This document shows positions 2,737-58,397 of a DNA stretch of 64,000 bases, piece by piece (within the stretch, counting starts at the first letter, position 1; the number at the start of each line of letters is the position of its first letter). The stretch comes from Octopus vulgaris. Its lineage: Eukaryota. The notes beneath the pieces were generated by a model. That model did no database searches. It was given only the letters and a program-made list of their open reading frames with translations, and was not told the DNA's origin. The DNA is taken from NCBI GenBank assembly GCA_951406725.2, contig OX597823.1:87544001-87608000 (forward strand). The letters are read 5' to 3'. The position numbers were made by a program, and so were the translations under genes.

Positions 2737-2807
<71 letters not shown>
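2737..2807. repeat. (TA)n microsatellite
   Basis: Perfect TA array. Confidence 0.98.
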
Positions 2808-2809
<2 letters not shown>

Positions 2810-2810
<1 letters not shown>

Positions 2811-3563
2811 GTGGTTTAGTAAGGGAAATCTTAAAACAAGATGTTAATTGATAATTAAGGAGTTGCCCATTAGCAGACTTATAAAAATGAAACAGGGGAA
2901 TTCTTATCATGTAGTATTATAGTTAAATACTTTAAAACAATGTTGCTATGTTGTTGAAGTTTAGGGTTATTCAAAGGATTATTAAGAAGAATATTGTAAC
3001 AAAAGGATAGACATTTATGAATACTTGAGTATATATAAAACTTTTACCACAATAGAGGGAGGAAAAGAAATTATATAGAAATAGTTTAATATCTATACAT
3101 ATTGTACACTTAAATACAAGCTCATCAGATGGTATCTGTGAATATTGATTAAATGATATTTATAATTAGCATGTTCTTTTCCCTCAATACTCTTTTATTA
3201 ATACCAGTAAATACCATTTAATCAATATTCACAGATACCATCTGATGAGTTAGTATTTAAGTATACAATATGTATAAATATTAAACTATTTCTATATAAT
3301 TTCTTTTCCTCCCTCTATTGTGGTAAAAGTTTGATATATACACATACGTATTCATAAACTTCTATCCTTTTGTTACAATATTCTTCTTAAAAATCTCTTG
3401 AGTAATCCTAAGCTTCAACAATATATCAACATTGTTTTAAAGTATTTAACTATACTACTGCATGATAAGACTTCCCCTGTTTCATTTTCATTAATCTGCT
3501 AATGGGCAACTCCTTAATCATCAGTTAACATCTTGTTTTAAGATTTCCCTTAGTAAACCACCA
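2810..3563. mobile_element. foldback element with ~355-bp inverted arms carrying mirrored hammerhead motifs
   Basis: 2810-3163 is the reverse complement of 3207-3563 with scattered mismatches; ~45-bp spacer; (TA)n on both sides. Confidence 0.9.
3462..3531 (-). ncRNA. type I hammerhead motif in right arm of the foldback
   Basis: AUGUUAA-CUGAUGA-...-GAAA-C(AGGGGAA)GUC-UUAUCAU; stem I 6/7, GUC triplet, imperfect stem II; mirror copy at 2841-2910 (+) has core mutated to UUGAUAA. Confidence 0.55.
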
Positions 3564-3653
3564 CTGATATATATATAGGGTAGCGAATATTTTTAGAAAT
3601 ATCACTTCCAGTGGCCTAGCATGTATAAAAAGTCAATAGACAAAATATTCCCC

Positions 3654-4106
3654 ATATAAAATTAGTGTACATATAAACACCAAAGAGGCGGCATTTAACA
3701 GGCAGCCTTACACGTTAGAAGGAGCAGTCAAAACGACCAAATCCACATTTAAGAGCAGTTTCGAAGGGAATGAAAAATAAAAAAAATTGTCTTGTCTTTT
3801 ACAGCTATACCTAGATTTCAAACTCTAATTAGCAAATATAATAACTTGCTGGGCGGAGTTCTCATCAGTGGCTACGCCAAAATATTAACATATAATTTAG
3901 AGACAGAATAACACGTGTTTCATACTTATATATTATAATGTTTCAAATTCACCGCGCAAGCGCGTTTCAGTCGGTAACAAGTGAGTAGCTACCAAATTAA
4001 TCTTCTGAAATTGCTAAAATCTTATTCGTAAAATGCTCCTTCTAGCATGTAAGGCTGCCTGTCAAATGTCGCCGCTTTGATTTTTATATGTACACTAATT
4101 TGATAT
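3654..4106. mobile_element. element bounded by ~72-bp inverted repeats enclosing hammerhead motifs
   Basis: 3654-3726 vs 4034-4106 inverted (AAATTAGTGTACATATAAA...TAGAAGGAGCA / TGCTCCTTCTA...TTTATATGTACACTAATTT). Confidence 0.8.
3803..3873 (-). ncRNA. type I hammerhead ribozyme motif
   Basis: AGCCA-CUGAUGA-GAACUC...GAGUUU-GAAA-UCUAG-GUA-UAGCU; 6-bp stem II with AGCAA/UUGCU extension, self-complementary stem III, stem I 4/5. Confidence 0.75.
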
Positions 4107-4741
4107 ATGTATGTACACATATATATATATATATATATTTACACACGCACACACACAAACACAGACACAAGTTTTATACCACATGAAATCAAATATTTTG
4201 TTTTTGTTAGCAATATGTAACTTCTTGCGCAATCCTCTACATCGTAGATAGATTTAATGAGCTAGTTTTGTGTCAATCAGCCATTCTGTAATTTTGGAGA
4301 AAAAGAAACTGTTAGTGGTCGCTCATAACCATCCTGTTGCTACAGCGCAACTGATTCCGATGACATAAACCGAGAAAAAGAGGACCGAATATGGGGCGAA
4401 GGTGAAAATGAGAAATTAAGTCGTTCTTACAACTTGACTTTCTCTTCTTCTAATAATTCCAGATCAGAAGAGACAAAAAGCATATCGGTGTCCTTAGACA
4501 ACCGGAACAAGTGCTGCAAGGCATTCGAAGCTCGCTGCAAATTCAACTGTCAGTTATAAGGTTAAACTTCTTGACAACGTGCTCAGTGCATTGTTCTCCA
4601 GAAACATAAGCCTACTTATATTCATTGTGATTCAACATGAGATACTTAGCATTTGACGCTTCTGGGCTACCGTAATTTTTGCCGCTTCCGCACTACCAAA
4701 ATATTAACCTCTCTCTTTCTCTGTCTGTCTGACTCTCTCCC

Positions 4742-11040: not shown

Positions 11041-11322
11041 ATACATATATATACACGTGTGTGTGTGTGTGTGTGTATGCGTGTGTGTGTGAACTTTAGG
11101 CTATTTAAGATATGTTTGAGTCATCTTTCAACTTCTAAAGTTATGTTCACTGAAGTTACAGTGGAGATCATTTTTTCTCTTATGTTGTACCGAAAGAGAG
11201 AATATTTCTGAACGGTGACTGCAGTGAGTTTACGTTTAAAAATTGAAATATCTTAACTAACCTAAAGTTCGCTTATGCCTAAACATTGTTTGGCGCCGAT
11301 ATTACTGTAATATATATACATA

Positions 11323-17667: not shown

Positions 17668-17702
17668 GTTTCCGACGAAGAGCTCCGCTCGAAACGTTAA
17701 AC
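17668..17702 (+). ncRNA. minimal hammerhead motif (U4C) in a ~210-bp TA-flanked element (~17598-17803)
   Basis: GUUU-CCGACGA-A-GAGC(UCC)GCUC-GAAACGUU-AAAC. Confidence 0.7.
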
Positions 17703-17799
17703 CCTCCTTTTTTCCTTCTTTCCTGAGCGTCCAATAATACTATATTTGTTCCACGTCCTCGCGTTGTTGTGGTTTTTTTTGTGCTTTCATGTTTGGATT

Positions 17800-18950: not shown

Positions 18951-19400
18951 ATACCAACAAAAATACAAAATTTCACACACATTCATACGCATTAACACAC
19001 ACATGCACACACAAAAACACACGGTCGAGTGCACGCGCGAACATATATGGAATTTGTGAGTGCCCGTGGTGAAATAGTTACGATATTGCCTGGAAGATCC
19101 TGGTTTCGATTCTCGGATCTGGTGATAGGTTGACGAAAACACTTTATTTCCCATTGCTCACCTTTAGAGCAGACGTGTGGTACATCATACGCATGTAAAA
19201 GAAATGGTAATGTGATGGACAGAGTGAGATAATGTACAGCGCAAACATTTGATGGCAGTGAACGCCATCTTTCTGCGGGTTGTTCAGGAAGAAATTGCAG
19301 AACATATATATATATATATATATATATTGATAGAAATGGTAAGATAAGAATATAATGAAAGAGACCTCGATATTTTGTAAATAGAGGAATTTATCTCTAA

Positions 19401-19622
19401 ATATAATATGTGACAATTATTCAGTAGCCATGATAAGACTCCGAGTTGCGGATGTCGGGGCGGAAACCCACGCCGCCATCTCTTCAGTTATCCGGCCATC
19501 GGAAAATGCTATGAAAATGACCGTTAAACTGAAGAGATGGTGGCGTTGGTTTCCGACCCGACATCGGACATCCGAAACTCGGAGTTTTATCATGGCTAGC
19601 GAATAAGTGTCGCATATTGTAT
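19401..19622. mobile_element. palindromic MITE-like element
   Basis: ~95-100-bp inverted arms (TAGCCATGATAAGACTCCGAGTT...ATCTCTTCAGTT / AACTGAAGAGAT...AACTCGGAGTTTTATCATGGCTA). Confidence 0.85.
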
Positions 19623-20758
19623 ATATATATGTTAATAACATTATATTATAAGCTTAAATCTTATAGAGAACACCGACCAATGACTAAAGGAAATAGTCTA
19701 ATAATAGGGCATATGAGCCCACGACAGAAAAAAGCAGGTTTTGCCGGTGATCGCTCTAAGCTATACGCTTGTAAAATACTATTATTTACATCATCTTAAA
19801 AATCGACACTGCTTAACAAAACCATTCGCAGTAAAAAAAAAAATAGCACATGAAAGCTTCTTTACAAAAATAGCTACGACTTATAGTTCTTAAGTCAGAC
19901 AGAAAAAACGTTGGTAGGTTTGCTAGTGCAATCTGTAGGACACTCGTTCGCGTAAACAAAGGGTAGTGGGATCGAATCGTACAGAAAAACCTATTTTTCT
20001 TCTGTCGAGGTCTCATTTGTCTCATTATTAGACTATTTTCTGTAAGTCATTGCATGGTGATCGCTTTAAGCTTATAAAATACTATTATTTACAGAATTGT
20101 AAATATCGGCATTGCTTAGCAAAATCATTCACAGTAAAATATATATAATAATATGTATGCATGTAAATATATATTTAGGTATGTGTGTATGAATATTTAT
20201 GCATGTATGTGTTTATTCCACATAAAATTTAAAATATTTTGCATAAATATATATTATATGTTTATATATTGACATATATACATATATATGTATATAATAA
20301 GAGTTATAAAACCTAGGATATTCTCGTATAAAGGAAATAAACATGCAGAATATATAATTTAGATTTTAAAAATGTAAAAATCATAGAAAATAATATGACA
20401 AATATGTAATTAAAGCATCAAATAAAAATTGCAATAAATAATATGAAACTCTAAATATTACACTTAGTAATTGAATTAAAATATATTCAGAAATTTACGA
20501 AATAAATAAAGTAATTCTAATTACCTTCCAGTTTTCTACTACGATTTAAATATAACTGTTAATTTTTAATTATTATTACTTCAAGCTAGATACGAGTTTA
20601 TTTAATGTTTTGCAATCTTTAAATATAATTTATTTGTGTACAGGTGCAAAATACGAAATATATCGCCTATTCATATTGGAATATAACAATTTACGCCTGA
20701 GTCTATGCTGTTCCGATTCCTATCTAGATCTATTCAAAAGAGAAAACTATTTTAAATC

Positions 20759-24669: not shown

Positions 24670-24891
24670 TCCTTTCTGCTATAAGCACAAGGCCTGAAGT
24701 CTTTTTGTTTTTGTTGGGGTGGACTAGTCGATTACATCGACCCTAGAATTTCAATAGTACTTAATTTATCGACGCCGAAACGATGAAATTCAAAGTCGAG
24801 CTCGGCGGAATTTGAAATCAGAACGTAGTGGCAGACGAAATACTGCTAAGCATTTCGCCCAGCGTGATAACAATTCTGCCAGCTCACCGCC

Positions 24892-24894
<3 letters not shown>
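24670..24894 (-). mobile_element. SINE family A monomer
   Basis: Head at 24894 abutting (TAA)n. Confidence 0.92.
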
Positions 24895-24962
<68 letters not shown>

Positions 24963-24965
24963 CTG

Positions 24966-26195
24966 AGTTGTAATAAGATGCACCACCCAAAGGCAGACGT
25001 AGATCGCCTTTACCTAAACCCAAGGAGGTCAGGCCTGATCCAATTTGAACTAGCTTACAAAACAACACAACTGGAATCCAAATATCTCGAAATATCGAAT
25101 GATTGGATGCTAAACTCGTGGAAAATAAGACGAAAGAAGCTTCATTCTATCATAAAGGAAAGCAAAAAATTTGCATTGATCTCTGCAGGATACCCAAACT
25201 GAACAACCCGAGGAAGTGCGGCAATTATTGTTGCAAAGAAGGTGAAAATAATGGCAACGAAAAAGCGCACGAGCAATTGGCTGATAGGTGGGAGGAGAAA
25301 CCTCTGCACGGCAAATATGTGACCCGCAGCAAACAAGCTGATGTTGACCAGAAGCAAACCCATCAGTGGCTACGGAGCTCAGGGCTGAAGCAGAGAGCGA
25401 AGGTTTCATCCTGGCTGCTCAAGATCAAGCCTATTAACCCGGAACTACCAGGCCAATGTGATGAAAAATGGAGCAGAACCAAAATGCCGATTCTGCAACG
25501 ACATGATTGAAACAGTGGACCACCTAATTCTGGATGTAAAGTCTTAGCACCAGTGGGTATAAATTAAGACATGACAGAGTTGGCCAATATCTACACTGGC
25601 TAATAAGTCGGCATTACAATATCAAAGCTGCCGATAAGTGGTATAATCACCACCCTGAGGCTGTAACTGAAGGAGAAAATGTAACCATTCTGTGGGACTT
25701 TCCAGTACATACAGACCGAACCATCAAGGCCAATAAACCAGATATTGTTGTGAAAGACCAAAACAATAAAGTTTGCTTATTGATCGACATGAGCATCCCA
25801 TGTGATCATAATATCTCAGCGAAAAGTTTGACAGCTCAGAAAATATAAAGACCTACTCATTGAAATTGAAAAAATGTGGCATCTCAAGCGGTTACAATAC
25901 CAGTGATCGTGGAGCACTAGGAATGATCAAGAGGAACTGAAAATTATATGAGAATGATCCTGGCTTACCATCCCCAAAGTGCAAAAGATTGTCTTAACTG
26001 GTACATCACACGTATTGAGAAGAGCATTGTCGATGTGAGAACTGTTGCTGCTCATGTATTTTAATTTAACTTTAAAAAAAAATGAACGAACTATTGAGTT
26101 TGGTTTAATGGCCTACCAATGTATATTATGAGTTTCTTTGCCTAGAGTCGGAAGACACTCGGCAAGAAATGGAACAAATTTGAAAGAAGAAAAAA

Positions 26196-43092: not shown

Positions 43093-43140
43093 GTCTTACA
43101 GTTGTTTCTGGGATGTTAGGGATATCCCTTCATCAGAGAC
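43093..43140 (-). ncRNA. type I hammerhead ribozyme motif
   Basis: GUCU-CUGAUGA-A-GGGAU(9 nt)AUCCC-A-GAAAC(AACU)GUA-AGAC; intact core. Confidence 0.8.
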
Positions 43141-48364: not shown

Positions 48365-48417
48365 GATGGGTGCTGATGAAGGCGTAAAACCCTTGAAATA
48401 TGGTATGTAGGCCTATT
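48365..48417 (+). ncRNA. type I hammerhead ribozyme motif
   Basis: GAUGGGUG-CUGAUGA-AGG..CCUU-GAAAUAU(GGU)AUGUA-GGCCUAUU; intact core, G-G mismatch at the base of stem I. Confidence 0.65.
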
Positions 48418-56839: not shown

Positions 56840-58397
56840 GGGGTAATTGAAGGGGACGGAATAAGGCATTCAGAGATGAAGGAAAGGATCAGGAGAGAAT
56901 GTTATCGAAGAGTGAGAGCAATACTTAAGACAGAGCTGAATGTAAGAAACAAATCGAAGCGATCAATGCATTAGCCATACCAGTCGTGACTTACAGTTTC
57001 AATATCATTAACTGGTCAATTACTGAAATATGTCAGCTTGACAGAAAAATACGAAAACTGTTGACAATGCATAGAATGCACCATCCTAAGGCGGATACAG
57101 AACGAATTTATCTGCCAAGAAAAGAGGGAGGCCGTGGTCTTTTACAACTGGCAATAACAATGAAGATTGCTACAATTGGCCTAGACACCTACCAGAAAAA
57201 GTCTGAGAACTGGATGTTAAAACTTGTCTCAAAACATGAAAACAAGAAAGCATCATACTCAGTAACAAAACAGGCAAAGGAATATCTAAGTGAATTCTGA
57301 ATACAACAAATTTCGGAATTAGAGATAGACATACAAGAAACAAGCACAGAAAAAGCTAAGCGCATGAAAACCCGTGCTAAAACTGCGGCCTTAGATATTC
57401 TGAATGATAAATGGCAAGAAAAAACTCTCTATGGAAAATACCCAAAGAGAGCGAATAATGCAGATATTGACAAAGCCCTGACTCATCAATGGCTAATGGC
57501 CTCTGGCTTAAAATCTGAAACAGTGGGGTTTATCATAGCAGCTGAAGATCAATGCCTACCAACAAGAAACTACCTGGCCAACATATTAAAGAACGGCAGT
57601 AGCCCAACATGTCGTGTATGTCGACAACAAAATGAAACCATTGATCATGTTGTATCCAAGTGCAGTCTTCTAGCGCCTACAGAGTATCTCAACAGGCATG
57701 ATAGAGCTGCACAATATATTCACTGGGTAATTTGCAAAAACCTGGATTTGCCCCATGAAAAAAACTGGTGCTTGAAAATGACCACATCTCACTCCTCTGG
57801 AACTTCACCATTCAAACTGACAGAAAGATAGATGCAAATACGCCAGACATCATATTGAAAGACTTCAGACAAAGAACAGCCTCCTCATTGATATAACTGT
57901 CCCAATTGACATAAACGTATCTGTCAAGAACTACCAAAAACTGAGCAAATATAAAGATCTTGAAATAGAAATCAGCAAAATGTGGAACCTGAAGACTAAA
58001 ACAATACCTGTTGTCATAAGTGCTCTGGGAATGATACCGAAAGGAGCTGATTGCTACCTAACTCAGATACCAGGAAACTCCAAAATGGCAGAAATTCAAA
58101 AGATAGTGCAAATGGGAACTGTTCATATCCTACGCAAAATACTTTCTATGTAATCTCAAGGTTTAAAACAAACAATTTTTATTTTTTATTTTATTTATTT
58201 ATTTTTTAAAATTTATTTATTTATTTTTTATTTACTTATTTATTTAGTAGACATTCCCTAGTACGACGCACAAAAAAAACAAATATATGGCACACTTGGC
58301 ATAACAACAACGTGAACTTCTAACCTGTTGTCTCTTGAGGTCTCTGGGTGAGACTTGGAGCCAACTTGTACCAATATAAAGCAAAAGTCAAACATAG
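56839..58397 (+). mobile_element. 5'-truncated R4/Dong-clade non-LTR retrotransposon
   Basis: AINALAIPVVTYSF, MHHPKADTERIYLPRKEGGRGL, LYGKY, GLKSETVGFIIAAEDQ, CRVC..ETIDHVVSKC, RHD, PDII, KYKDL; stop at 58153; (TAA)n on both sides. Confidence 0.95.

Follow-up and report, generated by a model that had tools for sequence, protein, structure and literature searches.

Insertions of Penelope-like retrotransposons are highly 5'-truncated and often carry at their 5' end an inverted, likewise 5'-truncated copy of the element, which leaves the insertion flanked by inverted repeats (PMC8557442). The same inverted-copy layout is reported in PMC8969392, and inserts bounded by inverted pLTRs, mostly in head-to-head orientation, have also been described (PMC3846280). 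Several Penelope-like clades use (TA)n targets (PMC8557442), and these elements tend to insert in or next to their earlier copies (PMC6765202). The minimal hammerhead ribozymes of these elements are in most cases solo motifs of truncated copies; pairs of them lying 100-700 bp apart on opposite strands have been reported, and their dimeric folding requires matching stem III sequences (PMC4209133). For an anole Penelope-like element, the element's protein has been shown in vitro to nick AT-rich DNA and to initiate reverse transcription close to the RNA's 3' end, and hammerhead cleavage needed the protein and was dispensable for insertion (PMC11167929). PMC8557442 and PMC11167929 leave open the reason why Penelope-like elements keep their hammerheads.

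Here we present an analysis of a 64-kb stretch of Octopus vulgaris DNA, termed the window throughout, in which a preliminary description had placed, at positions 3654-4106, a cassette bounded by inverted repeats and holding a tandem series of different hammerheads on its minus strand. We put at about 0.65 the probability that this cassette derives from the 3' end of a Penelope-like retrotransposon, now decayed, which was truncated at its 5' side on insertion into a TA-rich site and has an inverted terminal cap and a single type I hammerhead. All the letters and coordinates quoted in the preliminary description were found in place; overall, what it observed was confirmed in part, and its interpretation is partly supported. 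The window itself reads as non-coding animal DNA: it is AT-rich (GC 0.28-0.42 per 2 kb), with many microsatellites, dispersed repeats of about 200 bp and fragments of LINE-type reverse transcriptases, and ARAGORN detected no tRNA in it.

Inverted arms and ends of the cassette

The outer parts of the cassette and the adjoining tract are as follows:
3654-3726, minus strand: left arm, located downstream of the hammerhead on that strand and putatively the element's 3' terminus
4034-4106, plus strand: right arm, a putative inverted, 5'-truncated second copy of the 3' terminus
4103-4138, no strand assigned: imperfect (TA)n tract abutting the right arm, 18 copies with 82% matches (TRF), the probable insertion target

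Self-BLAST of the window aligned the two arms as inverted repeats of 73 bp with 89% identity (E 3e-22), 65 of the 73 positions matching and 8 differing, which bears out the repeats of about 72 bp recognized earlier. The homology of the arms ends abruptly at 4034. Both outer ends of the cassette are flanked by ATAT, and the outermost ATAT is either arm end or target: as it is palindromic, arm end and target duplication are indistinguishable here. The left flank is unique sequence. TRF found no tandem unit inside the cassette, and the four cassette frames scanned gave no Pfam match. Neither arm nor interior has a second copy in the 64-kb window by self-BLAST, and blastn in its 'distant' setting found no match to the cassette in the phage and plasmid collections. 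The RNA of the whole cassette is predicted to fold as a long hairpin (z -10.8).

The ends might also be those of a DNA transposon resembling a MITE, in which the 73-bp arms would be terminal inverted repeats (TIRs) and TA or ATAT the target, and which would have captured a Penelope-like piece and would carry the hammerhead as passive cargo. The arms end at the identical base on both sides next to ATAT and would equally pass as TIRs, and the element is short, non-coding and, as RNA, a long hairpin. MITEs resemble it in being short and non-coding with terminal inverted repeats (PMC8969392), but hammerheads are not among the MITE features described there. Further marks of MITEs are a high number of copies of uniform length with fixed ends, and TIRs shared with an element that encodes a transposase. 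In this cassette, moreover, the strand of the hammerhead and its distance from the end fit a Penelope 3' end, and the same layout, with a hammerhead inside both arms, is found at 19398-19625. That the 64 kb hold no second copy is a weak point of this reading, as other small repeat families recur often in the window. On balance we regard an origin as a DNA transposon as unlikely.

The inverted terminal copy is compatible with, but not unique to, Penelope-like elements. Neither a clear 30-40-nt tail, which is optional in those elements, nor a long target duplication could be made out from this one copy, a point to be weighed against a Penelope-like remnant. The preliminary description had considered heterogeneous tandem copies inside inverted repeats to look unusual. 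For hammerheads inside inverted repeats as such, this is not supported, since flanking inverted copies are common in Penelope-like insertions and the window contains a second case at 19398-19625.

A complete but decayed type I hammerhead

The downstream ribozyme of the cassette, here motif C, had been placed at 3803-3873; its full extent is slightly greater:
3801-3875, minus strand: motif C, complete but decayed type I hammerhead
3875-3869 and 3807-3801, minus strand: stem I
3868-3862, minus strand: core, CUGAUGA
3861-3856 and 3825-3820, minus strand: stem II, with a second hairpin inside
3819-3817, minus strand: GAA
3816-3809, minus strand: 8-nt near-palindrome
between 3808 and 3807, minus strand: predicted cleavage site

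Motif C is the sole match to a strict type I descriptor on both strands of the 64 kb, an equally strict match being produced by 1 of 200 shuffles of the window and by none of 20,000 shuffles of the cassette interior. Its score with a log-odds scorer, 21.5 bits, was reached by none of 810 real 158-nt tiles, in a scan in which motif C itself straddles a tile boundary, and by 1 of 8000 shuffles of the upstream segment. It has the CUGANGA and GAAA boxes, U16.1 and a base other than G at position 17. For comparison, the best plus-strand candidate in the cassette interior scored only 1.5 bits.

The earlier account had called this hammerhead well-formed, a label that calls for some qualification. A C-A mismatch at the second pair leaves stem I with 6 of 7 pairs, whose pair probability does not exceed 0.07, and G-U wobbles close stems II and III. 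Stem II is predicted with probabilities of 0.82-1.0, and stem III is predicted to form only in a homodimer. The active fold is predicted at -6.0 kcal/mol as against -21.0 for the free fold of the monomer, and at -27.2 as against -49.5 kcal/mol for the homodimer; under one protocol the penalty for the active fold is 13.9 kcal/mol for motif C, compared to 5.1 and 10.3 kcal/mol for two other hammerheads of the window. Since nearest-neighbour models also disfavour the active folds of other window hammerheads, this energy gap is weak evidence of inactivity, and motif C in this copy is predicted to be inactive or weak.

A focused Rfam search of 3600-4098 returned no hammerhead family, nor was there a hammerhead among the 150 of 163 matches listed for the whole window. 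These results, along with an active fold disfavoured by 14-15 kcal/mol, could be taken to mean that motif C is a chance match, or a functional ribozyme adopted by the host, and that the inverted repeat has nothing to do with it, being a local fold-back duplication. We consider this highly improbable, given that strict matches are absent from the interior shuffles, that the other clear hammerheads of the window are likewise missing from the Rfam matches listed, and that the visible decay speaks against a selected function in the host.

Probable affinities with Penelope-like elements

The Penelope-type connection proposed earlier is supported by the architecture of motif C, which is that of the Hydra-clade hammerheads in PMC8557442 File S2: the core is followed by one extra nucleotide, a U or C precedes the GAA, and a palindromic stem III of 3-4 bp is present. 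Motif C is oriented toward the left arm, with about 150 nt between its cleavage site and the left end; the comparable distance is about 35-150 nt in six rows of File S2, as computed by hand on the assumption that 'position' there denotes the start of the printed string (PMC8557442). The cassette combines a sense-oriented hammerhead near the 3' end, an inverted 5'-truncated terminal copy and a (TA)n or AT-rich target, features that fit a Penelope-like remnant. Pfam was run on 150 translations, of which 8 came from local frames and 142 from a set of 226 complex frames of at least 55 aa, and no Penelope reverse transcriptase or GIY-YIG domain was found in them. That no such remnant ties the cassette to a Penelope ORF counts against this reading, although for the local frames a negative result is expected of a truncated copy.

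With endonuclease-positive Hydra-clade insertions the cassette shares the type I hammerhead near the 3' end, the extra post-core nucleotide, the palindromic stem III, the (TA)n target and the inverted 5'-truncated copy at the 5' end, the last as annotated for Penelope-13_HM (PMC8557442). It differs from them in having no ORF, a stem II extended by a second hairpin and an extra hammerhead-like motif upstream; as there is no ORF, the cassette is not assignable to a clade. By eye, the sequence of motif C differs from that of Hydra-1_oBim, the one octopus Hydra hammerhead that is published, which counts against a Penelope-like remnant. The minimal hammerheads of Penelope-like elements are similar in their short palindromic stem III, in the predicted need for a dimer and in being mostly solo motifs of truncated elements (PMC4209133). 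In contrast to the opposite-strand pairs, the inverted arm of the cassette is too short for a second hammerhead, and the candidate extra motif shares the strand of motif C but not its sequence.

Non-LTR retrozymes are likewise non-coding, a few hundred bases long, equipped with a type I hammerhead and linked to Penelope pLTRs; unlike the cassette, with its inverted arms and no tandem unit, they are arranged head-to-tail with one ribozyme (PMC7229834; bioRxiv 10.64898/2026.07.22.740005). Circular RNA in abundance is a further mark of retrozymes. Terminons, too, are Penelope-type units that end in a hammerhead at the 3' side, but they are described as giant, multi-ORF, telomeric elements in which reverse-complement telomeric repeats directly follow the ribozyme (PMC6431247), and the cassette shows none of these traits.

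If the cassette is a Penelope-like remnant, its origin may be envisaged as follows. A Penelope reverse transcriptase/GIY-YIG protein, acting in cis or in trans, would nick AT-rich DNA, and reverse transcription would start near the RNA's 3' end and copy about 380 nt (3654-4033). A second cDNA of 73 nt from the identical terminus would then be joined head-to-head, yielding the inverted repeats. In the parent element, cleavage by the hammerhead would have relied on a homodimer held together by the stem III palindrome, or on the help of protein; the ribozyme would be a passenger from the pLTR, and the present copy would have drifted since, the arms now differing by 11%.

In this likely case the locus means little in itself, as solo hammerheads left by truncated Penelope-like elements number in the thousands in animal genomes (PMC4209133), and the window alone has at least five more hammerhead loci besides the cassette. 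The practical lesson is that such insertions mimic MITEs and escape Rfam.

A possible second hammerhead upstream

Upstream of motif C on the same strand, the preliminary description had noted a decayed motif at about 3958-4010. It is present and extends further than described, through a CUUG-capped hairpin and a 5-bp stem I; its status as a ribozyme is only suggestive. The parts of this segment, here motif A, are:
3946-4012, minus strand: motif A, possible decayed second hammerhead with two core changes
4012-4008 and 3950-3946, minus strand: stem I, 5 bp
4007-4001, minus strand: core look-alike
3995-3988 and 3978-3971, minus strand: stem II, an 8-bp hairpin
3968-3965, minus strand: GAAA
3964-3953, minus strand: stem III, a 4-bp hairpin capped by CUUG (CGCG/CUUG/CGCG) after the GAA

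The core is not intact, having A in place of U4 and G in place of U16.1, and three extra nucleotides precede stem II. With lenient spacer limits, which were chosen after motif A had been seen, it scores 14.0 bits, a value equalled by 33 of 8000 shuffles and by 5 of 810 real tiles. These five tiles comprise two hammerhead remnants, part of motif C and two that were judged to be chance, and the latter, at 11061 and 7437, outscore motif A with 18.7 and 16.0 bits, respectively. With spacers of 0-1 nt, as in published motifs, motif A was not recovered, and the best score of the segment was equalled by 413 of 8000 shuffles. Its partial pattern occurred in 29 of 20,000 shuffles and recurs twice elsewhere in the window, and it is absent from the 13 loci that pass a relaxed whole-ribozyme descriptor. 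On the other side, its 14.0 bits approach the 14.7 bits of a real hammerhead at 19529, which counts against reading the cassette as a remnant with a single ribozyme.

We give near even odds to motif A being a real relic. Under the preferred reading of a Penelope-like remnant with one hammerhead, it would either have arisen by chance or be a one-off relic left by a different hammerhead; the habit of Penelope-like elements of inserting in or next to earlier copies offers a possible source for such a one-off relic.

The half-motif between the two

The orphan palindrome reported at 3910-3921 is indeed there (3921-3910 in the sense of the minus strand):
3910-3921, minus strand: motif B, GAA followed by an 8-nt palindrome and U, a 12-nt half-motif without a core of its own

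Around it, a hammerhead's 5' core box and stem II are absent, and no whole-ribozyme match includes it. The half-pattern arose in 444 of 20,000 shuffles (40 of 20,000 when C15.2 was required) and is found at 15 other places in the window. Motif B is most likely not a ribozyme. The CACGTG within it is the E-box sequence.

Two candidate folds involving this segment were rejected. For a whole ribozyme around motif B, the best stem I overlaps that of motif A and was matched by 2191 of 3000 shuffles; for a single ribozyme made of motifs A and B with a long stem III, an equally good stem I arose in 283 of 3000 shuffles and in 738 of 3000 random segments, which is no better than chance.

As a separate observation, 3932-3905 on the minus strand has, in order, a TATA-like box, the palindrome of motif B and, about 23 nt downstream, an initiator-like stretch. 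This could be the remnant of a pLTR promoter.

Proposed serial hammerheads and dimeric folding

Pairwise alignment with shuffles, in which A-B and C-C3prime were left out as overlapping segments, found no homology among motifs A, B and C beyond the motif itself. Patterns of the A and B types co-occurred in 1 of 20,000 shuffles, with thresholds tuned to the observation, a result that favours the earlier account: more than one hammerhead relic may be real. The claim of a tandem series depends on a statistically borderline motif A and a half-motif B.

The earlier account had also linked tandem copies to dimeric folding. For motif C this argument fails: its stem III is predicted to pair with motif A or B at only -0.6 kcal/mol, compared to -6.2 kcal/mol with itself, and without such pairing heterogeneous neighbours cannot rescue it. 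The stem III segments of motifs A and B, for their part, are predicted to pair over 5 bp at -5.0 kcal/mol.

These data bear on a further alternative, namely that the cassette belongs to a compact non-autonomous family derived from Penelope, whose consensus would have a row of two or three unlike hammerheads (A and C, perhaps also B) that cut the RNA into circularisable pieces of 50-150 nt. The score of motif A along with its 5-bp stem I, 8-bp stem II and true stem III hairpin, the resemblance of motif B to the 3' halves listed for Hydra-1_cRog and Penelope-17_HM, and the predicted A-B pairing would accord with such a family. Nevertheless, motif A has its two core changes and three extra nucleotides and is lost at the narrow spacers, motif B lacks a core and has a stem I at chance level, motif C forms no stem III duplex with either, and the known non-LTR retrozymes are, unlike the cassette, tandem repeats of one unit. 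We view a multi-ribozyme family as improbable, and a version with two hammerheads is equally doubtful; in it, the upstream motif with its tetraloop-capped stem III would cleave as a monomer, and the downstream one with its palindromic stem III would need a dimer. If true, the RNA would be cut under two different conditions, freeing a circularisable piece of about 143 nt. In the literature searched, which did not extend to the 2017 Terminon paper and the dimer-cleavage paper, no short element with a series of unlike hammerheads was found to be described. Were motif A to prove conserved across a family, the cassette would be a small system for testing why hammerheads are kept by Penelope-like elements, and also whether different ribozymes can stack on one mobile RNA.

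Other hammerheads and repeats in the window

In the segment 19398-19625, which has TA repeats at its borders, a single hammerhead-bearing end is present twice in head-to-head arrangement; it is a clean example of a Penelope-type inverted insertion, cleaner than the cassette. Its hammerhead cores are:
19529, plus strand: hammerhead core
19487, minus strand: hammerhead core

Beside this fold-back, in 19640-20150, one segment is duplicated in inverted orientation (19657-19742 and 19986-20073), whereas the copies of the adjoining one (about 19740-19845 and 20050-20150) are in direct orientation.

Hammerheads with intact cores are also found at 43136-43090 on the minus strand and 48373-48416 on the plus strand, scoring 19.2 and 19.4 bits, respectively. 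Two minimal hammerheads on the plus strand, at 2577-2611 and 17672-17705, are decayed and related to each other, each with a palindromic stem III of 4 nt; none of 300 shuffles aligned as well as these two. The remnants at 43136, 48373, 17672 and 2577 indicate that such hammerhead relics are common in the window. Among the hammerheads tested, the one at 43136, which is preceded by a long pyrimidine-rich stretch, incurs the lowest fold penalty. A covariance model built from seven hammerhead segments of the window was dropped, as the alignment put the GAAA boxes out of register.

A long palindrome occupies 2795-3577, with arms of about 370 bp at about 90% identity that are separated by 45 nt, and with (TA)n on either side. 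Close to the centre of the palindrome, both arms contain the 5' core box of a hammerhead with no GAAA box after it (5.1 bits), and the whole is possibly another Penelope-type fold-back. This palindrome, together with a third, short copy of its end (2476-2519), belongs to a composite some 1.1 kb long; the 22-nt direct repeat on its two sides (21 of 22 identical; 2459-2480 and 3571-3592) may represent a target duplication.

Frameshifted C-terminal fragments of LINE-type reverse transcriptase lie at 56929-58153 and 24816-25848. The zf-RVT domain at 57301-57828 is the only convincing Pfam match in the 150 frames scanned, and a protein search with the ORF at 57301 retrieved 10 reverse transcriptase relatives. 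Finally, at least two SINE-like families of 150-250 bp, with some ten or more copies each, often as inverted pairs, are distributed over 8538-63589.
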